Source: an uncultured delta proteobacterium
GTDB lineage: Bacteria > Myxococcota_A > UBA9160 > SMWR01
Length of the DNA: 64,000 bases
Reading direction: 5' to 3'
Assembly (NCBI GenBank): GCA_963832165.1
Contig: CAWHTE010000011.1
Location: 160,001 to 224,000, forward strand
Both the position numbers and the translations under genes were made by a program. This document shows positions 52,546-63,826 of this stretch, piece by piece. Position 1 is the first letter of the stretch. Each line of letters opens with the position of its first letter. The notes beneath the pieces are model-generated. The model saw only the letters and a list, made by a program, of their open reading frames with translations. It searched no databases and had not been told where the DNA came from.

Positions 52546-53130
52546 ATGCGTCTTCACTCATCGCTGTTAGCGCTCGCTCTGCTGCTCCTGGGTCCGGCGT
52601 CCGCGCGAGCTGCGTTCCACTTGTGGGACATCACCGAGGTGTATTCGAACGCAGACGGGTCTGTCCAGTTCGTCGAGTTCTTTACCAATGCGGACTTCGA
52701 GGAACAGCTCGTGAACCACGTCCTCGCGTCCGCTGCCAACAACCCTGACTTCACCTTCCCAGGCAACCTCCCGACCCACCTGACCGCGAACCGCTTCTTC
52801 CTGGTCGCCACCCCTGGGTACTCCGCGCTGTGCCCGGGCGCCCTCCCGGACTACACGTTCCCCGCGGCCAACTTTCACAGTGTCACGGGGCCGGAGATTC
52901 TCGACTTCGCCTCGGTGGATTCGTTCCCCTACGCGGCTGCTGAGCTCCCCACCGATGGCGTTCGCTCGCTCAACGAGCCCTTCGGGAGCAACGTTCGGAC
53001 GACAGCGGTCAACTCTCCCACGAACTTCGCGGGCCAGACCTGTCTGCCGGAGCCGTCGGCATTCCTCGCGCAGATCGCGGGCGTCGTGGGCCTCGCGGGT
53101 CTCGGTCGCTGGCGCAGGCGTCGGCGCTAG
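52546..53130 (+). CDS. PEP-CTERM-type sorted surface protein
   Basis: Signal peptide, FHLWDITEVYSNADGSVQFVE, C-terminal LPEP-TM-RWRRRR. Confidence 0.82.
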   Translation: MRLHSSLLALALLLLGPASARAAFHLWDITEVYSNADGSVQFVEFFTNADFEEQLVNHVLASAANNPDFTFPGNLPTHLTANRFFLVATPGYSALCPGALPDYTFPAANFHSVTGPEILDFASVDSFPYAAAELPTDGVRSLNEPFGSNVRTTAVNSPTNFAGQTCLPEPSAFLAQIAGVVGLAGLGRWRRRRR

Positions 53131-53143
53131 TCGCGGCCAGAGA

Positions 53144-55525
53144 TCACAAGTCGATCTCCACGCTTCCGCCGAGCCAGTGCGCGGCGAAATCGCCGTCGAC
53201 GTGGCCGAGGTAGATCGCGTGGCCGATGCGCGGGACCAGGCCGGCCTGGTGGAAGTTCGCGATCGTCGAATGCCAATAGCGATACGCGAAGCGCAGGGCC
53301 ACCCAGTCGGTCACCTGGAAGCGAGCACTCGTGTCCAGGATGTGGTCGGTGTTGCGCAAGGTCGGAAAGCGGGCCCCCGCGTCCGCGGCGGTCGTGCCCG
53401 GAGCCAGCGCAGAAGCGCTCGCGAAACCGTAGGAGAGCCGCTCCTCGGCGACGAGCAGCTGGTATTGCAAGCGCAGCTCGAGGCGCTCGACCGGGCGCGC
53501 GGTGAAGCCCGCACCCGCGGCGACGCTCTCGGCACGGGTGCGCGCGTCCCAGGCGCGGTCGAAGGGAAAGACGGGGCCACCTGGCTCGAACTGGGTTCCG
53601 GTGGAAGACGCCGGGTAGATCGTGTCGAGCGCGCGCTTTCGTCGCTCCAGGCTCCCGAACACGAACGCATCGAATTGCGGAGCGGGTTGTATGGAGAGCT
53701 CCGCATTCGCATCCCAGGCGCGTGAGCGCCGGAGTCCGTAGCGTGCATCGTAGTCGTCGTCCTTCACTCCGCCGTTGAACGCGAGGTCGGCGATCTCCGC
53801 GATCCCGAAGCTGACGCGCGCTTGGCCGTCGTGCCTCACGCGGTCGCTCAAGTCGAACTGCTCGAAGCCCAGCAGGCTTCGCTGTGGCGATCCCAGGAAC
53901 GGCGCCGCAAAGCCCGGCGGACCCGTCGAGTAGAACTCCGCGTCGCGATCGGGCCGGTAGGAAGAGCCGCCGCGATCGCTCAACTCGTACGCAAGGCGCA
54001 CCCTCGTGCGCGGGATGCCGCGCGTCGACACGCTGATGCGGCCGCGATCGTCGCGCGTTTCGGCGCGCGCGCGCTGATCCCGCTCCACCTGCTCGCGCTC
54101 GTATTCGATGGTGAGTCGGGATCGGACGGGCAGACGCCAGGTGGTGTCGGCCCCGAAGATCACGCGATCGGCATCGTACGGCACCGCGGCATAGCGCGGC
54201 TGGATCCCGAAGCTGCCGTCCTCGGCGATGTAGCCGTACCCGCCCGTGGACGGGTTGAACGCGACGTAGTCGGTCTCGCTCTTGCGCTGCTCGAGCCGGA
54301 ACTTCCCGCCCACGTTCCAGAAGCGCAGCGGCACGAGCTTCAACGTCGAGGTGACCACCATCGTGTCGACGGATGCGTCGGCGCGGCTCCGCGAGAGCGA
54401 GGTCGCCGGGTTGGTCCAGGCTGCGAACGTGGGATTGATGGTCGGCGCCAGGAGCCGCTCGTCCTGCCGCCCCTGTGCCATGGAGAACGTGTTCGTCCAG
54501 CGACCGCGCCACGGAAGTGCGAAGCCGCCCGTGGCGTGAATCCGGTGGAGGGCGTTGTCAGGCGTCAGCGCAAAGCGCCCGCGGTCGACGCCCGAGTCCG
54601 AAAATGGATTCTCCCAGGTAAGCGACTCCACGCGGTTCTCGAAGAACGACCCGTCGTAACCGACGTCGATCTGGATGTGCGGATCGCTCACGGCGATCGC
54701 GCCGTGCACGTCGTGGGTGCGTGAGTCGAGTGGCTCGAGCGTCTCGATCACGCTGCCGATGGTCGGTGCCTGGAACGCGAAGCGGATCGCGCCGCCGAAC
54801 GGCCGCTCGCCGCTGCGATCTTCCACGCGGTAGCCCGCGTTGACCGACAGCGCGTCGGACGCCGCAAACGCGAGCTCCACGCCGCCTTTCTCGCGCGTGA
54901 ACGCGACGCGACTCTCCGGCCGCGCTGCGATCGCGGCGTCGATCGCCGCGTCGGAGCTCCCTCCCGCGACGAGACCGGCCGGAAGCGTCAGGCTCTCGCT
55001 GCCGGCGCCGTCGAACAGCACGCGCGCATCGTTCGCGTAGCGGTGGGGCAGCTTGTCGTAGCTGCCGCGCACGCGCAGACGGCCGCGCTGGCCGAAGTCG
55101 AGAAAAGCGGACGCATCGTCGCGCCCGAGCGCATTCGCTCCGAGCTCGACGTAGAAGCCGCTCGGCGCGTTGCGCGCTTCGAGGCGCAGTGCATCGACGA
55201 TCCCATCGCGGTAGTCCGAGTACCGCTCGAGGTAGGCCTCGTCGTCGCCGCCGGACGACTCCATCCAGCCCACCTCGCCGAATCCGCCCACGATCCAGCC
55301 GTCTCCGAGGCCGAGCCGTTCGGGCGGCGCATAGGGGTAGGGGTAGAGGAAGCCCTCGGGCGACCGCTGGCGCGTGTTGCGCAGGAAGGAGAGCCCGGCC
55401 GGATCCACGTGGCGCGACCGGGTGAACGTGAACTCCTCCGCCTGGTTCGGGCCCGCTGTGACCGGCGCCGCCATGCCCAACGCCAGGAGCGCCGAGGCAG
55501 ACCATCGCCGGCCACGCGAGATCAC
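53144..55525 (-). CDS. mtrB: MtrB/PioB family outer-membrane beta-barrel
   Basis: About 793 aa, signal peptide, amphipathic strands, YSDYRDG, LTPDN, GTGA-coupled to the decaheme gene. Confidence 0.85.
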   Translation of the reverse strand: MISRGRRWSASALLALGMAAPVTAGPNQAEEFTFTRSRHVDPAGLSFLRNTRQRSPEGFLYPYPYAPPERLGLGDGWIVGGFGEVGWMESSGGDDEAYLERYSDYRDGIVDALRLEARNAPSGFYVELGANALGRDDASAFLDFGQRGRLRVRGSYDKLPHRYANDARVLFDGAGSESLTLPAGLVAGGSSDAAIDAAIAARPESRVAFTREKGGVELAFAASDALSVNAGYRVEDRSGERPFGGAIRFAFQAPTIGSVIETLEPLDSRTHDVHGAIAVSDPHIQIDVGYDGSFFENRVESLTWENPFSDSGVDRGRFALTPDNALHRIHATGGFALPWRGRWTNTFSMAQGRQDERLLAPTINPTFAAWTNPATSLSRSRADASVDTMVVTSTLKLVPLRFWNVGGKFRLEQRKSETDYVAFNPSTGGYGYIAEDGSFGIQPRYAAVPYDADRVIFGADTTWRLPVRSRLTIEYEREQVERDQRARAETRDDRGRISVSTRGIPRTRVRLAYELSDRGGSSYRPDRDAEFYSTGPPGFAAPFLGSPQRSLLGFEQFDLSDRVRHDGQARVSFGIAEIADLAFNGGVKDDDYDARYGLRRSRAWDANAELSIQPAPQFDAFVFGSLERRKRALDTIYPASSTGTQFEPGGPVFPFDRAWDARTRAESVAAGAGFTARPVERLELRLQYQLLVAEERLSYGFASASALAPGTTAADAGARFPTLRNTDHILDTSARFQVTDWVALRFAYRYWHSTIANFHQAGLVPRIGHAIYLGHVDGDFAAHWLGGSVEIDL

Positions 55526-56487
55526 CGGTGGAACCTCGCTCCCGAAGGATGGTTCGAGCCGTGGATCTGCGCGTGACAGTTGACACAGCCGCGGTTCACG
55601 ACCCGCTCGTCCGGAAGAGGTCCGTTGGCGAGATTCGCGCGCGTCTGGAGCGCGCCCGGATGATTGGACACCCCGAGCTGCGCGTGGCACTCCTGACACA
55701 GGAATGGCGGCGACGTGGTGAGCAGGGAGTCGCGATTCGAGCCGTGGGGCAGATGGCAGTTGAGGCAGCTCTCGGTGACGGGGGCGTGCTCCCATAGGAA
55801 GGGGCCGCGCTTCTCCTGGTGGCAGGTCGTGCACAGCTGATTGACCGAGTCCGCGCGCAGTAGCGGATCCGTGACGGAGCCGTGGGGCTCGTGGCAGTCG
55901 GTACACGAGATCTTCCCCTCCAGCAGCGGCATGTGCGACCGCTTGCGGAACTCGGCGCGCTGGGCTTGATGACAGGCGAAGCAGGTCTGGTTGACGGTCG
56001 GCATCCGCAACAGACCGCGGGCCGACGTGCGCGTCATCGGATTGTGACAGTCGCTGCACGCGAGGCCCTCGGCGTCGTGCGTCGAGCCGAGCCAGTGGAC
56101 CCGTCCTCCGGAGGAGTGGCACTCGAGGCACGTGTCATTCATCACTTCGACGGCGGCTCCCGAGCCGCGCGTGAACGCGAGCAGCTCGCCGGGCTTGCCG
56201 CCGCTCGCGACGTGGCGCGAGCCGGGTCCGTGACAGGTCTCGCAGCCGCGCGAACCGGGCTCTCCCTCCACCGCGCGGCCGAACACGTCCGCGTGCACCG
56301 TGTCGCGAAAATGCTTGGTCTCCTGGGCGTGGCAGCCCAGACAGATCGCCTCGCCGACGTACGTCGCCGGAGGCGCCGCATCGTCCGCGCGCGCGCTCGG
56401 ATCCTCGGGCGAGGCGCATCCCAAGATGAGCCAGCCCAGCACGACGAGCGCCCAATGCGGTCCGAGAAGTCGGTGGCCGTCCCGCAC
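55522..56487 (-). CDS. mtrA: MtrA/DmsE family decaheme c-type cytochrome, possible lipoprotein
   Basis: Ten CxxCH motifs counted; EKRGPFLWEHAPV, IHGSNHPSG; LILGC lipobox-like. Confidence 0.93.
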   Translation of the reverse strand: MRDGHRLLGPHWALVVLGWLILGCASPEDPSARADDAAPPATYVGEAICLGCHAQETKHFRDTVHADVFGRAVEGEPGSRGCETCHGPGSRHVASGGKPGELLAFTRGSGAAVEVMNDTCLECHSSGGRVHWLGSTHDAEGLACSDCHNPMTRTSARGLLRMPTVNQTCFACHQAQRAEFRKRSHMPLLEGKISCTDCHEPHGSVTDPLLRADSVNQLCTTCHQEKRGPFLWEHAPVTESCLNCHLPHGSNRDSLLTTSPPFLCQECHAQLGVSNHPGALQTRANLANGPLPDERVVNRGCVNCHAQIHGSNHPSGARFHR

Positions 56488-56510: not shown

Positions 56511-58269
56511 TTAGGCGTGCATCCTCACCTCCCCGGAGCGGTAGACCGCGAGCGGCGGGCCATCCGCGCGCAGCCCCAGATCGAAGCGCAGCCCGTCTGG
56601 CGCCACGCCGGTGCAGCGCAGCAGCGCGCGTGCACGCTGCGCAGGTGGTGCCACGCGCACAGCGTGGTCAGGTTGGACGGGTCCCCGCCGCCGCCGAGGA
56701 GCGAAACACCACGTGATGCTGCTGGAGGTTGCGGTACGTCGTGCAGCCCGGCACGGTGCAGCGCCATCCGTCGCGCTCGAACACCGCGTGCTCGCGGCGC
56801 GTGCGCTTCTCGGGCTGCCACGCGGCCAGCGCGTGGTCGAGCATCGCCTCGAGCGCGTCACTGCGCCTGCAGGGGCGACCGCGGATGCGCTCGAGCCGGC
56901 GCTGCACAGAGGCGAGCACCGCGCGGAACAGCTGCGCGACCTCGGGAGCGGCGCGGAAGAAGAGGCGCTCGCTTTCTTTTTCGAAGCGTGTGATGGCACC
57001 CGTTTGGAGACCCGCGGGATCGGCGTCGGGGTCGATCTCCTGCGCGCTCGGCTCGAGCGGCGGCGGCGCGAAGTCTCCGAGCGCCAGAGCCCGCTCCACA
57101 TCGTCGCCGAGCCGGCGCACGGTCACGCGCTGCGCGTGCGCCACCCAGCCTTCGCGGTGGCGCGCCGCCGCGGGCTCCAGCAAGAGGGGCACGAGCGCAT
57201 GGGCCTGCACCCAGGAGAGGCGACCCTCGGTGAACGCCTCGCGCAGCGGAGGGCACACCTGCGCGGCGCGCTCGATGCGCAGCAGCGCCCGCGCGTGGCT
57301 CGCCGCCATACCCAGCCGCTCCTCGGCGTAACTATCGACGCTGCGGAAGCCGAGATCACGGTGCAGGCCCCACGTCACGACGGCGTCCAGCAGAGAGGCA
57401 ATCCGCGCGAGGCCGCGCGCTTCCCATTGCACGGCCAGACGCAACCGTCGATCGAGCTCGAAGGCATCCGCAGATTCGAGGTCGCGCTCGAGCGCGGAGA
57501 CGTCGGCATCGAGCGGAACGGAAGCCATCGACGGACGCCGCCGCTGGGGGCTCGGCGACGGCCCGCCGCTGTCCGTCGATTCTCCACGCTCTTCGTCGCA
57601 CTCGGCCAGCGGCTCCGGATCGCAGACACCGTCGAGCGGGATTCCCGAGAACACCTCCGCCGCGAGCACCTCGGCAAACGCGCCGTGCGAGAGCGCGTGC
57701 CCGGCGACTCGATTCGCTACCCGGCGCGCGCTCCACCAGCGCGCACGCGCACGCGGCGAGACGCGCAGCACGACGCCCACGCGCGCTTCGTCGTCGCTGT
57801 CGGCGTCCAGCGGGATCGGCTCGCGCGCGCGCCGATCCACCGCGCGTACCTCGCGGGCGAGCGCGCGGGCGGAAAGCCGAGCCGCCACGGTGAGCCACTC
57901 CAGCTGGTTCTCCGGCGTCGCTACCCGGCACAAGAGGCGCAGCTGCGTCCAGCTGATCTCGCCCGCGCGAAACGCCGCGTCGAGCGCAGGTAGGTCCTCC
58001 AGTACTCGATCCACCGCCGCGAGATCGCGCAGCTCGCGCCCCGAGATCCCGGCTCGCTCCACCGCGTAGTCGGCGAGCCGCGCGAAGCCGAGCCGCTCCC
58101 AGGCGCGCATGGCCACCATCCGTCCCGCGATCCGCGCGAGCGCACGCCGCAGCGCGAGGGGCGCATGCACGAGTGCGACCAGGCGCGACTCGAGGTCGAG
58201 CGGAGCGTTCACATGCGCCACACGTCGCACGCCAGGCCGCGGCGCGACCATCGGGGATACAGCCGACAT
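56511..58269 (-). CDS. DUF222-like protein with C-terminal HNH endonuclease; frameshifts near the 3' end
   Basis: VFERDGWRCTVPGC...HHVVFRS, then NLTTLCAWHH and APDGLRFDLG in shifted frames; duplicated helical segment (AFRAGEISW / AFTEGRLSW). Confidence 0.75.
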
Positions 58270-59045: not shown

Positions 59046-59260
59046 AAGCCGGGCGGCGGTCTCCAAGAGCGGGACGATCGGGTGCTGGCGAGCCTCTCGG
59101 ATCGCTCTCCGCTCGCTCCTTCTGCTCGATCAGAAAGTCGAGGTGCTCGTAGAGCCGCGTCGCTCTCGATTGGGCGACGGATCCCAGCTGCTTCTGCCAC
59201 TGCTCTCGGTGGCGCGGGCTGTAGACATCCGAGCCCGGAGTGGGAATTCATCGAAACCGT

Positions 59261-59470
59261 ATGCGGGCCGAACAGCAGCCGCTCACGCCCCGCGAGATCG
59301 AGGTTCTTAGGTGGGTGGCGCGCGGCAAGTCGGCCTGGGATGTCAGTGCGATTCTGGGCATCACCAAGCGAACCGTGGAAGAGCACGTGCACAACGCGAT
59401 GGGAAAGCTCGGCGCTTCGAACCGCACCGAGGCAGTGGTGATCGCCATCCGGCGACCGGATCATCAGCGC
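59261..59470 (+). pseudogene. LuxR-type HTH domain only (truncated or stand-alone)
   Basis: LTPREIEVLRWVARGKSAWDVSAILGITKRTVEEHVHNAMGKLGASNRTEAV; ORF runs on to 59653 with unrelated sequence. Confidence 0.7.
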
Positions 59471-59557: not shown

Positions 59558-60051
59558 CTACCGAGAAATCTTCCGCTGTACGAGCAGGCCCACCAGACCG
59601 AGGCCGAGCAGCGCCGCAGTCGTCGGATCCGGAACCGGGAGGCCTGCAAGTAGGCGTCCGAGTGAGACACGAAGACGTCGCCGCTGACCAGCCCCAGGCC
59701 GAGGATCGCGTTGATGAACTGGATATGGATCGCGTTCACGATCAACTTGCAGCTCGCGACTGCCCCGGCGCAGCTCGCAGCAGGAATGCCATCTGCCAGA
59801 TAGCTCTGCTCGTTGGCGGTGACGGTCATTCCACCGAGGTTGAGGAGAACGGTGTTGGCGGCCGGGGACCGGCGTTCCGTTCACCAACGATCCACTGGTT
59901 GCTGCGGACTCGACACCGCGAGCGCGCCGGTCAGCGAGACGGATTCGCCATAACCCGTGCTGTTCCCGGCGCTCGGCAGTGCGCGCGCAATGCTGGATGA
60001 CCCGACCAGCATCCCGACCATCGAAAAGACGGCTAGCACCTTGCTCATCAT
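59558..60051 (-). pseudogene. PEP-CTERM-type surface protein, frameshifted and probably internally deleted
   Basis: Signal peptide MMSKVLAVFSMVGMLVGSSSIARA; middle NEQSY...IVNAIHIQF...DVFVSHSDA; end VPDPTTAALLGLGLVGLLVQRK, spread over different frames. Confidence 0.65.
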
Positions 60052-60104: not shown

Positions 60105-60338
60105 CTAGCGATTGCGTCGCACTGCCGTGCTCGCGATCGCCAAACCCAGTCCGAACACGAGCATCGCGCTGGATTCAGGAATCGGCTGCGGGAACTCGTT
60201 GCGATCTTCGTTAGTCGACGCGACGACGATCGCCGGCGACGTGGCCGGCGCATTGCCGTGGCTCGCGCCACCGCCGCAATCTGCACCCAGACTCGAAAGA
60301 ACCATGAGCAGAATCAACAACAGGCGCATCCGCAACAT
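60105..60338 (-). CDS. Minimal PEP-CTERM-like small protein (77 aa)
   Basis: Hydrophobic signal ending LGADC, ~30-aa spacer, IPESSAMLVFGLGLAIASTAVRRNR. Confidence 0.6.
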   Translation of the reverse strand: MLRMRLLLILLMVLSSLGADCGGGASHGNAPATSPAIVVASTNEDRNEFPQPIPESSAMLVFGLGLAIASTAVRRNR

Positions 60339-60416: not shown

Positions 60417-62927
60417 CTAGACACACGGAAAGGGCAAGCGGCGATGGCGGCCGGCGACTGCGAGCGCTCCGAGGCCCATGACTACCATCGCAGCGGTCCC
60501 CGCCTCCGGAACCGGGATCGTCTCTACCGTCACCGAAAGCCCGTCGAAGTCCTTCTTGTTGATGAAGGCTCTCTCACCGCTATCCGCAAAGGCGAGCAAT
60601 GCGTTGTCGATGTTGACGCCAGCGCTCGTGGCGGTGGCCCCACACGCATCGGGGATCGCGCCGGTCCCGCCCGTGCCGTTCAGACCGCCCGTCGCGGGAT
60701 CGAAAAAGCCGCTTCCGGCGCACGCGTCCGCGAGGATCGAGGTAAATTCGTACTCCTCGTGCAGCCCCCAGACGTCGATGCCATTGAACGATGCGGTGGT
60801 AAACTGCAGCGCCGTGCGTCGCGCATACTCCACCTCGAGATTCCCACCACCGGACGCGGGGATCAGCAGCTCGAGTCGGACGAGCGTCGTGACGCTGGCC
60901 TGGCTATCCGACGGCTCGGAACCGAAGACCAGCCAGTCGCCATTCTCTTCGAGAATCAGGCTGTCCATGGAAAAGTTCTCGTGGGGGCTGATCGTGAAGA
61001 TCAGGTTCCCGTCGAGGAAGTCCGGATTACTGGTGTTCGAATCCGCCTCGAAGCCAATCGGATCGAAGTCGAGCAGATCCCCAGCGCATTCCGGCTGGTT
61101 GTAGAGCGGCGCGTCGGCGCTGCTCTCGGCGATGTTCGTGTAGTCGACTGTGGCGCAGGAGCGGGAGCTGTGCGCGATCGTCGCGGCCCCGGCGCTGGAC
61201 GCAGGAGCCCAGGCAACGGCGAACGATCCGACGGACAGCGCCAACTTCGCGACCATCCCGCCACCGACCGAAAATCCCGGGCTGCGCAGCTTCGTTCGCC
61301 TCACCCAGAGAGCGAGGCCGATCAAGCCGGTCGCAAGGAGCAAGCCCGCCGAGGGCTCGGGCACGAACGTCACCTCGATCTCGAAGGTCTTCTTGTGGAT
61401 GTCGTTGGTGCCGCCGTCGAACGAGAAGACCTCGAGCGAGTTGTCGAACTGGAAGATCTCGATGGCAGTCGCGTGCGTGGTCAGCGCACCAACATTCGCG
61501 ATGAGCTCGCCGTTCCAGATGGCGTCGGGGTCGGGGTCTACCCAGTGTCCGTCCCCGGCAGTCCCAAGCGGAGTGAAGCCCATGCTGACGGACTGAGACG
61601 GAATCGAGAGATTCGTGATGAAATCGAGCGCGGTGACCCGGTAGAAGAGATTGCCGATCACCTGCGCCGAACCGTCCAGCGACAGGTTGTAATCACCCGA
61701 CTCGCGGATGGTGATCGAACCGATCCGCGCATTGGGATTGGTGGATTGCGGGATCACGATGTCCAACAGGAGTCTCGTGTCGACGAGGTCTCCCGAGGCG
61801 CTGGTCGTCTCGGCAAAGAACGACGGATCGACGTCGAAGACCAACGTAGTGCCGGCGAGGAAGATGTTATTGGGATCGCCGCCGTTCACGAGCAGCGGCG
61901 GATCCGGATTCGTCGCTGATTCCTGGATGTTGTTGTACTGGATCAGCGTGTTCTGCTTGTCGCCATAGTTCACTACCAACGCGGATGCAGAGGTCGCGAA
62001 AGCAACGACCAGGCCAAACGCAACGGCGAACGATCCGACGGACACCGCCAACTTAGCGGCTATCCCGCCACGGATCGGAAATCCCATGCTGTACCGTTTC
62101 GCTCGCCGCGCCCAGAGAGCGAGGCCGATCAAGCCGGTCGCAAGGAGCAAGCCCGCCGAGGGCTCGGGCACGCCACTGAAGCCGCCGCTACCAAAATCAG
62201 TGCGGCCGCTGCCGAGGTCACCGCCGCCGGTGCAATCATTGGAGATGGTGTTCGTATCCATCGTCACTGCGCCATTGAGCGCGATGGCCCTTCCGCACAG
62301 AATCCTCACACCGCTAGTCAAAGTAATGCTCTGGTCCGCGAGGATATTGCCTGCGAACGTCGTCAACGTACCGAGAGTTGCGGAACTGCCGACCGCAAAA
62401 TAGACGCCAGTGTTGGCGCCACCATTGATGACGTTCACGCTCGAGCCGCTGGCGGTCGTCAGGGTGCTCCCGATCTGGACAATGAACAACGCATTGGGAT
62501 CACCTTGAGCGTCGAGGGTGAGGATCCCCGTCAGCTGAGCCGATGTGTCAAAGTTATAGACGCCCGCAAACAACGTTAGGCCGCCGAGATCTTGGCCCGT
62601 CAGATCGCTTGTGAACGGCTCGGTTTGCAGCGAAGTGAACGCTGTGCTCGCGTCGAGCTGCGCCTGCTGCGCTACCGCATCAGTTTGGTGCACGGTTCCG
62701 GTCAGCGTGATGCTGCCTAGACCCGTGATCGAGGTGCCGGGGTAGACACCCAGGTCGCCATTGATGGTGGTGGCGCCCGTGTTTGTCACGGTCGAAGCGC
62801 CCAGGACCGCAAAGCTCTCCGCCGTGCCCAGGGGAAAGGGCGTGGCCCATCCAGGGGCGGCATATAGAAGCGCGCCGAATATGAGGATCGCGAGCAGGGA
62901 CGAGAAGGGGAGCCTATGGAGGGGCAT
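60417..62927 (-). CDS. Ice-binding-like (DUF3494) protein continuing as a three-unit PEP-CTERM polyprotein
   Basis: [36 protein letters not shown]...[10 protein letters not shown]...VGSSATLGT...[10 protein letters not shown]; three VPE-TM-basic motifs, the first two each followed by a new signal-like peptide. Confidence 0.88.
61212..61365. repeat. Duplicated PEP-CTERM + internal signal peptide linker, copy 2
   Basis: 61304-61365 is identical to 62111-62172; GCAACGGCGAACGATCCGACGGACA is also shared. Confidence 0.85.
62020..62172. repeat. Duplicated PEP-CTERM + internal signal peptide linker, copy 1
   Basis: 62-bp exact match to 61304-61365 plus similar adjoining sequence. Confidence 0.85.
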
Positions 62928-63460: not shown

Positions 63461-63826
63461 TTAGCACCGCCGAGGCCGCTTACGCGGCGCGCGAGATTTC
63501 TTGGACCGGCTGGGAAGCGGCCCGCACGGGACCGCGGAATCGATGGCGTCCTCGAACTCACCTTCGGTGGTGAAACCGAAGGCCCTCATCAAGCCATCCC
63601 TGAGTTCTTGGCTCTCCCGGTATTCCGGTAGGGGTTTCACCCGATCGTTAGCCGATCTAATGTTTCGCTTGCCATAGAGGATTCGGTGGATCGTCGACTG
63701 ATGGACACCGATTCTGCGCGCGATCTCGGTCGTATTGGGAAGCTCGAACGGGCCCTTGCGGAGCGTGCTGCGCTCCTCGAACTGATTCTTTAGGAATCCC
63801 CGGAGCTTTGACAGCCGATCTGCCAT
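63461..63826 (-). CDS. Helix-turn-helix DNA-binding protein (XRE/Cro-like)
   Basis: NTTEIARRIGVHQSTIHRIL. Confidence 0.65.
   Translation of the reverse strand: MADRLSKLRGFLKNQFEERSTLRKGPFELPNTTEIARRIGVHQSTIHRILYGKRNIRSANDRVKPLPEYRESQELRDGLMRAFGFTTEGEFEDAIDSAVPCGPLPSRSKKSRAPRKRPRRC

Follow-up and report, generated by a model that had tools for sequence, protein, structure and literature searches.

The window that we analysed, a 64,000-nucleotide stretch of bacterial DNA, contains on its minus strand an open reading frame (ORF) of 836 amino acids (60417-62927) that has no internal stop and reads, in order, signal, ice-binding domain, PEP-CTERM, signal, jelly-roll domain, PEP-CTERM, signal, related domain, PEP-CTERM. 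The original prediction held that three complete signal-domain-anchor units lie in one frame, and this was borne out: all the motifs that it quoted, the Pfam tags and the stop-free ORF are present, and we consider the chained layout confirmed as a genuine feature rather than chance or a simple sequencing error. We think it probable, judging from the sequence, that the ORF specifies one precursor, which is cleaved at the inner membrane to give three exported proteins; we infer its expression, its topology and both cleavages. The features, with positions numbered from the first letter of the window, are the following.

60417..62927, minus strand: whole ORF, 836 aa, three chained export units
62844..62927, minus strand: N-terminal signal peptide, aa 1-28; hydrophobic core 2.77, predicted cut after G-W-A
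62172..62843, minus strand: unit 1, DUF3494 ice-binding-like domain, aa 29-252; PF11999 E 1.4e-55, PDB 6eio_A E 2.7e-44
62094..62171, minus strand: internal PEP-CTERM 1 (PEP, membrane helix, RRAKR), aa 253-278
62064..62093, minus strand: linker 1, aa 279-288, probably derived from intergenic DNA; contains Met281 (ATG), whose ribosome site is poor
61980..62063, minus strand: internal signal 2, aa 289-316, ending in A-S-A; core 2.63, aligned with stand-alone genes on contigs C7 and C2
61365..61979, minus strand: unit 2, unnamed jelly-roll beta-sandwich, aa 317-521; 98% identity to a stand-alone gene on C7
61284..61364, minus strand: internal PEP-CTERM 2, aa 522-548; its first 20 codons are those of PEP-CTERM 1
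61257..61283, minus strand: linker 2, aa 549-557; Shine-Dalgarno-like site before Met558
61185..61256, minus strand: internal signal 3, aa 558-581, from Met558 to A-G-A; core 1.78
60513..61184, minus strand: unit 3, distant paralogue of unit 2, aa 582-805
60417..60512, minus strand: terminal PEP-CTERM (VPEA variant), aa 806-836, and stop codon
61213..61365, no strand assigned: 153-nt junction repeat, copy at junction 2
62020..62172, no strand assigned: 153-nt junction repeat, copy at junction 1

Pfam places an Ice_binding domain at residues 41-228 (E 1.4e-55), together with three PEP-CTERM stretches, and the cut-off of each underlying profile is exceeded: PF11999 scores 188.6 bits on unit 1 against a curated cut-off of 28.7, PF07589 scores 51.9 bits over the three stretches against 20.7, and TIGR02595 scores 30.6 on the ORF against 16. 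Third-position GC stays between 0.66 and 0.94 along the entire frame. The tag motifs are VPEPS at residues 253 and 522 and VPEAG at 806, and the PEP motif, hydrophobic helix and basic cluster that mark PEP-CTERM substrates are all found; only tag 3 is at the C-terminus, tags 1 and 2 being 584 and 315 residues from the end. The two internal small-x-small motifs, ATSASA ending at 316 and ASSAGA ending at 581, are each preceded by a basic cluster, a short linker and a hydrophobic stretch, and the junctions that contain them form a 153-nt direct repeat with 90% identity. By hydropathy and by alignment to stand-alone homologues, a signal stands before each domain, that of junction 2 being marginal. 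The ORF has the form of a polyprotein, one open frame with complete units that occur elsewhere as separate genes.

Unit 1 is, by sequence, a DUF3494 protein close to solved ice-binding proteins (25 solved relatives; the match to 6eio_A starts at residue 29), for which ice binding is predicted. The combination of DUF3494 with a terminal PEP-CTERM tag has already been published (PMC7783341). Units 2 and 3 are distant paralogues with 24% identity, and their family also includes ordinary single genes. For unit 2, the identity to such genes on C7 and C2 is 98%, 75% and 48%; unit 3, which contains conserved cysteines, shares 62-65% identity with four stand-alone proteins (P0163-P0165, P0167). Two tandem stand-alone unit-2 genes on C7 (245944-248459, L014) have identical terminal tags. 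Apart from the tag, Pfam has no family for units 2 and 3, NCBIfam matches them around the tags only, and among PDB sequences they find nothing better than E 0.06. A structure model of unit 2 (pLDDT 83.8) is a beta-sandwich whose best fold match is Bdellovibrio Bd1399 (8okh_B; Z 10.6, rmsd 3.5, 154 aligned residues); the others are jelly-roll lectin, carbohydrate-binding and capsid domains with Z of at most 7.3, and they indicate no function. That unit 2 might bind glycans in the surface matrix is a guess.

We scored signals with a plain hydropathy window, as the best 12-residue hydropathy, and set our own threshold at 1.9. Signal 2 is strong by this measure (2.63, versus a median of 2.43 among the 46 ordinary tagged genes of the genome), while signal 3 is weak (1.78, below the threshold and below the best core of 43 of these 46 genes); the junction-2 core lies at 1.78-1.80 in three versions, versus 2.2-2.7 in the signals of stand-alone unit-3 proteins. 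This weak junction-2 core is the main weak point of the processing model. The original prediction that the internal hydrophobic segments are signals is supported by their homology to real N-terminal signals, since the internal A-S-A and A-G-A share alignment columns with the N-terminal signal ends of 10 stand-alone homologues. The new N-termini that it foresaw, LVVNYG at residue 317 and ATIAHS at 582, would lie right behind these aligned signal ends, and a small-x-small motif is kept at the stand-alone cut-site position in all versions. Signal 3, counted from Met558, is 24 residues long and aligns without a gap to the first 24 residues of stand-alone unit-3 homologues, with 11, 10 and 8 of 24 residues identical in three of them and 3 of 24 in a fourth that is one residue longer. 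Given that it is in register with the Met1 of the stand-alone proteins, we take Met558 to be an old start codon and the chain to have arisen by gene fusion. Signal 2 is a hybrid, with the start of a unit-3-type signal, whose old start codon is now ATA, and the end of a unit-2-type signal. One part of the prediction did not hold for this ORF: the basic tail of each anchor does not double as the n-region of the next signal, because a neutral linker of about ten residues separates the two and the signals have a Lys of their own (292, 561), although the predicted arrangement does occur in other chains, for example P0006. A loop of 16-19 residues precedes each internal hydrophobic core. We conclude that the junction layout is not due to chance, because a hydrophobic stretch of at least 1.75 within 50 codons behind the anchor, with the stop ignored, is found in only 3 of the 46 ordinary PEP-CTERM genes of the genome and because the AxA motifs match the signal ends of homologues.

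The enzymes that were predicted to process the chain are both encoded in the genome, which has six exosortase-family matches (TIGR04178) and two signal peptidase I matches over the respective cut-offs, as well as 47 ordinary terminal PEP-CTERM tags recognized by pattern. In the model that we favour, Sec would export unit 1 via the N-terminal signal, the PEP-CTERM helix would act as a stop-transfer segment while the short basic loop stays in the cytoplasm, and the internal signal that follows would re-start export; signal peptidase I would then cut after A316 and A581 and exosortase at each PEP, so that each domain would be sorted like an ordinary PEP-CTERM protein. A path of export, stop-transfer and re-start is expected from established Sec biology. 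A ribosome that starts at Met1 cannot stop at the junctions, so the whole chain is made whenever unit 1 is. A scan for promoters and terminators gave results at chance level.

Several relatives allow the junctions to be compared. On the same contig (C11), at a distance of about 553 kb, lies a second copy whose sequence, with some upstream DNA, is 92% identical over 2 kb. It reads ice-binding domain, junction 1, unit 2 and terminal tag, with the junction open; one extra base late in its unit 2 causes a frameshift in the last unit and may be an error. A protein of 568 aa, P0001 (found in JGI and ENA data, on four contigs), and its cluster mate P0003 consist of the ice-binding domain, a junction of the junction-2 type and unit 3. 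The DNA of P0001 is represented by L019, a JGI contig from another assembly, which translates to P0001 without a stop and whose protein is 85% identical. P0003 has a frameshift in its last unit, as does the second copy, so that two of the four known loci show such a frameshift, whether by error or by real loss. A chain with all three units is known only from the present assembly. Within the length limits of our protein searches, P0001 and P0002 were the sole matches. With junction 2 as query, 42 of 43 other family genomes gave no match, and the remaining one gave a weak match with an internal stop, many of these genomes being incomplete; a query of junction plus unit 2 matched 9 of 40 other genomes, and the loci examined were stand-alone genes or tags only. 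A scan of genome contigs gave 13 pattern matches, and no relative was among them. A separate locus, C3:429066-431894 (L003), has a tag at residue 272 of a 942-codon open frame; the stretch behind the tag contains no signal-like segment and has a non-coding look in that frame, so that this is probably a lost stop or a shadow frame.

The most serious rival to processing of a single precursor is that most of unit 3 comes from initiation at its own Met558, like any ordinary PEP-CTERM protein, and that read-through at junction 2 is tolerated because exosortase removes whatever lies behind the tag, a scheme that is compatible with precursor processing at junction 1. Our ribosome-site scores, which are rough duplex energies for pairing with the genome's own 16S end, lend it some weight: the Met558 ATG scores -7.6 kcal/mol, versus -6.8 at the start of the ORF, and -7.6 is reached by only 3 of the 35 in-frame start-type codons of the ORF, Met558 included. 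The ancestral start at junction codon 37 is kept as ATG in junction 2 and as Met in P0003, while junction 1 and L019 have ATA; in L019 the ribosome site persists (-7.6) before the ATA, and a TTG stands at junction codon 41 in all three DNA versions. Against this, Met1 ribosomes make the precursor regardless, a start at the TTG would give a signal without a basic residue, and junction 1 has no good site, its candidate starts scoring -3.1 to -5.3 kcal/mol (the old start, now ATA, -3.6; Met281 ATG, -3.1). In addition, 94 of the 126 internal junctions that we describe below from other bacteria have no Met before the hydrophobic segment, although GTG and TTG starts are invisible in protein data. 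Unit 3 of P0001, whose junction has no Met, shows no excess of private changes (7, versus 14 in the Met-bearing P0003). We regard this alternative as unlikely on balance. Given that junction 1 combines the lack of a good internal start with a strong signal, unit 2 should depend on read-through, and its origin from the precursor is favoured; for unit 3 an ATG and a ribosome site remain, and it may also be made independently from Met558, and thus have two sources. The fixed ratio of three proteins that had been predicted is therefore doubtful, as junction 2 retains both the ATG and its Shine-Dalgarno-like site and has a weak signal.

A second alternative accepts the precursor but leaves one or both internal signals uncut, most likely that of junction 2, giving a multi-helix membrane protein that would hold two or three periplasmic domains together, or a badly exported unit 3. 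The weak core of junction 2 and the loop before each hydrophobic core are in line with this. In Haft et al. 2006 (PMC1569441), moreover, the tag is placed near the C-terminus 'virtually without exception', with a median tail of three residues, and long-tailed tags are suspected to be non-functional. However, the small-x-small motif is kept at the cut-site position in all versions, the PEP motif is intact and conserved, and unit 3, with its conserved cysteines, is still under purifying selection. We find incomplete processing improbable, distinctly more so than a separate start for unit 3, and retain the fully processed precursor as our preferred reading.

The evidence for selection comes from comparing the window with L019. 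The ratio dN/dS is 0.17 for unit 1 and 0.28 for unit 3 (p 8e-7), and for the internal tag it is 0.17 over 20 codons (p 0.049); the linker has a ratio of about 1, like neutral sequence, and the internal signal alone a ratio of 0.26 that is not significant (p 0.10). Unit 1, unit 3 and the internal tag are therefore under purifying selection. Between junctions 1 and 2 there are 11 replacement and 4 silent codon changes. These values bear on the reading that the fusion is young and either neutral or in decay, within a PEP-CTERM gene cluster that is itself unstable, and that only unit 1 matters while the rest drifts. Such decay would fit the last-unit frameshifts of the second copy and P0003, the broken PEP-CTERM gene just downstream, the narrow distribution and the neutral linker, but the constraint on unit 3, which is seen between two fused alleles at dS 0.24-0.43, the conserved internal tag and a frame that is open in all five junction versions seen speak against it, and we give it little credence.

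That the frame is an artefact, through miscalled stops or two loci joined via the 153-nt repeat in assembly or base calling, is very hard to credit: although the seven contigs of the one DNA run, which contains 0.10 of the sequence words, bridge neither junction, the one-base insertion of the second copy may be an error and the three-unit form comes from a single assembly, each junction type is also found open in diverged sequence elsewhere, in one case in a different assembly, and unit 2 of the window differs from both near-identical copies (by 8 bases from the second copy and by about 15 in the mature part from C7), which speaks against a collapsed repeat.

The surroundings of the ORF hold further observations. 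Directly downstream, at 60105-60338 on the minus strand, a 77-aa protein, too short for the ORF list, amounts to hardly more than a signal peptide, some 30 residues and the variant tag IPES. It is followed at 59558-60050 (minus strand) by a PEP-CTERM-like gene that is broken by an in-frame TGA (59881-59883) and has its tag in another frame; run X1 has a low-depth contig that matches 59722-59998 without a difference, TGA included, and a further, diverged contig with 8 additional bases at this place. An ORF for a LuxR-type helix-turn-helix that stands alone (59240-59455, plus strand; PF00196, E 8.8e-21) faces the end of the PEP-CTERM cluster. At 56668-58269 (minus strand) lies a 533-aa ORF that has no match in Pfam and has related copies at five other places (C11:47265-48809, C11:772929-773414, C1, C4 and C5), one of them directly downstream of the second copy of the chain and the one on C4 split across frames; it carries what we take to be an HNH-like motif at its C-terminus and may be a mobile element. 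Upstream of the chain, a small helix-turn-helix gene (63461-63826, minus strand) is duplicated together with the ice-binding gene (C11:775799-776104, 92% identity) in a block of about 2.6 kb. L019 has a different neighbourhood (L019:1-3500): the shared upstream DNA extends for about 0.6 kb, and beyond it are short tRNA-gene-like matches and an ORF that we presume to be band-7-like. Farther away in the window, at 53144-56487 on the minus strand, an ORF with several CxxCH motifs, a multi-heme cytochrome, adjoins a long beta-barrel-like ORF, a pair that we take to resemble MtrA/MtrB, and an ordinary secreted protein with a terminal LPEP tag and a weak lamin-tail-domain match is encoded at 52567-53130 (plus strand).

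The junctions also suggest how the chain came about. Junction codon 27 is TAC, CAC, CGC or TGC in four DNA versions, TAC and TGC being one step from a stop, and nine codons separate it from the old start at codon 37; it is plausibly the relic of a lost stop codon. Junction 1 begins with 51 codons from the junction repeat and finishes with 13 residues that are similar to the end of the signal proper to unit 2, a hybrid structure which implies that unit 2 was captured by recombination inside the signal. On this evidence, a two-gene operon of an ice-binding gene followed by a unit-3 gene would have lost the intervening stop, unit 2 would later have been captured from a stand-alone paralogue by recombination within the signal, and a further crossover at the PEP tag would have duplicated the junction and given three units, an order of fusion and capture that we infer.

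Proteins with several tags and hydrophobic segments between them also occur elsewhere. From 22 tags, 20 of the genome's 47 ordinary ones and two of the 836-aa ORF, we derived a tag profile of 32 columns, with which we searched 1.84 billion cluster representatives; as summed scores favour multi-tag proteins, the result is not a frequency estimate. Among the best 150 matches, 87 proteins carry 2-10 tags: two tags in 60, three in 14, four in 8, five in 3, six in 1 and ten in 1, the ten-unit protein bearing the name of a Planctomycetales bacterium. Of 145 internal tags (89 proteins), 126 have behind them, within 50 residues, a hydrophobic segment that scores 1.9 or more, versus 86 of 1877 control windows, and an AxA stands behind this segment in 91 of the 126, versus 19 of the 86 controls. 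We also considered whether gene-caller read-through of stops was the source of the other chains, and rejected this, as in the protein data Trp follows the basic cluster in 8 of 145 cases and X in none. The other chains have linkers that look unlike those of the 836-aa ORF, and they carry different cargo (laminin G, F5/8 type C and unnamed domains), which points to many separate origins; seven of ten chains that we looked up are single-member clusters. The layout is general, recurring in many other bacteria, and the particular junction of the 836-aa ORF is narrowly distributed in the family genomes searched. We hypothesize, leaning only slightly in favour, that PEP-CTERM bacteria have a general polyprotein route, in which a portable tag-plus-signal hairpin serves as a cut-and-re-export junction, arising readily from operons by stop loss, with recombination adding cargo (2-10 units) and signal peptidase I and exosortase resolving the product.

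To our knowledge, polyproteins cut by signal peptidase are a textbook matter for viruses and rare in bacteria. Analogues are the Bradyrhizobium FbcH cytochrome b-c1 precursor and those envelope polyproteins of viruses that signal peptidase cuts. These resemble the ORF in that one gene with an internal cleavable signal after a membrane helix yields several products; they differ in that they give subunits of one fixed complex, whereas the ORF has interchangeable surface proteins and a reusable tag-plus-signal junction. Judging by the title of a 2017 study by Abdul Halim and colleagues, ArtA reportedly processes a tripartite signal that is not at the C-terminus. This too would be an exosortase-family enzyme acting on a non-terminal tag, but the substrate is an archaeal Tat substrate and, by the title, no chain of secreted units. 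With PEP-CTERM/exosortase substrates in general the ORF shares the tripartite tag, an upstream signal and a genome with many tagged genes and an exosortase, and it is unlike them in having two internal tags, each followed by a new signal and a complete unit. An internal MYXO-CTERM tag in MXAN_5598 has been attributed to a probable gene fusion, with processing proposed, and such tags are said in the discussion of that paper to work in mid-protein (Guo, Haft, Wall 2025, PMC11980579). An internal sorting tag and an origin by fusion are common to that case and ours; the tag and the protease are different, there is one internal tag, and the passage on it describes no second signal or repeated units. 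More internal tags may be given in Table S1 of that paper. A 2023 myxosortase preprint uses neither the word 'internal' nor the word 'fusion', and our searches of the openly available literature, with most hits judged from titles and the starts of abstracts, gave no paper on chained PEP-CTERM units. The chain, which is like a signal-peptidase-cut polyprotein built from PEP-CTERM substrates, is thus apparently undescribed in print.

Should such chains be processed, exosortases would have to recognize internal tags and Sec to resume export behind them, a single bacterial gene would deliver several surface proteins, and annotation pipelines would now miscall such genes as single multidomain proteins. 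We stress that this locus is unusually testable, since stand-alone versions of units 2 and 3 can serve as controls, unit 1 has an assayable predicted activity, and junctions 1 and 2 differ precisely in the relevant features, namely signal strength and a retained start codon. It offers a clear record of how PEP-CTERM chains arise and grow, and if the general route that we hypothesize is true, it would have been caught here under construction among close relatives, with a two-unit ancestor, a vestigial start that some alleles have lost, an exchange of cargo and a product of three units.
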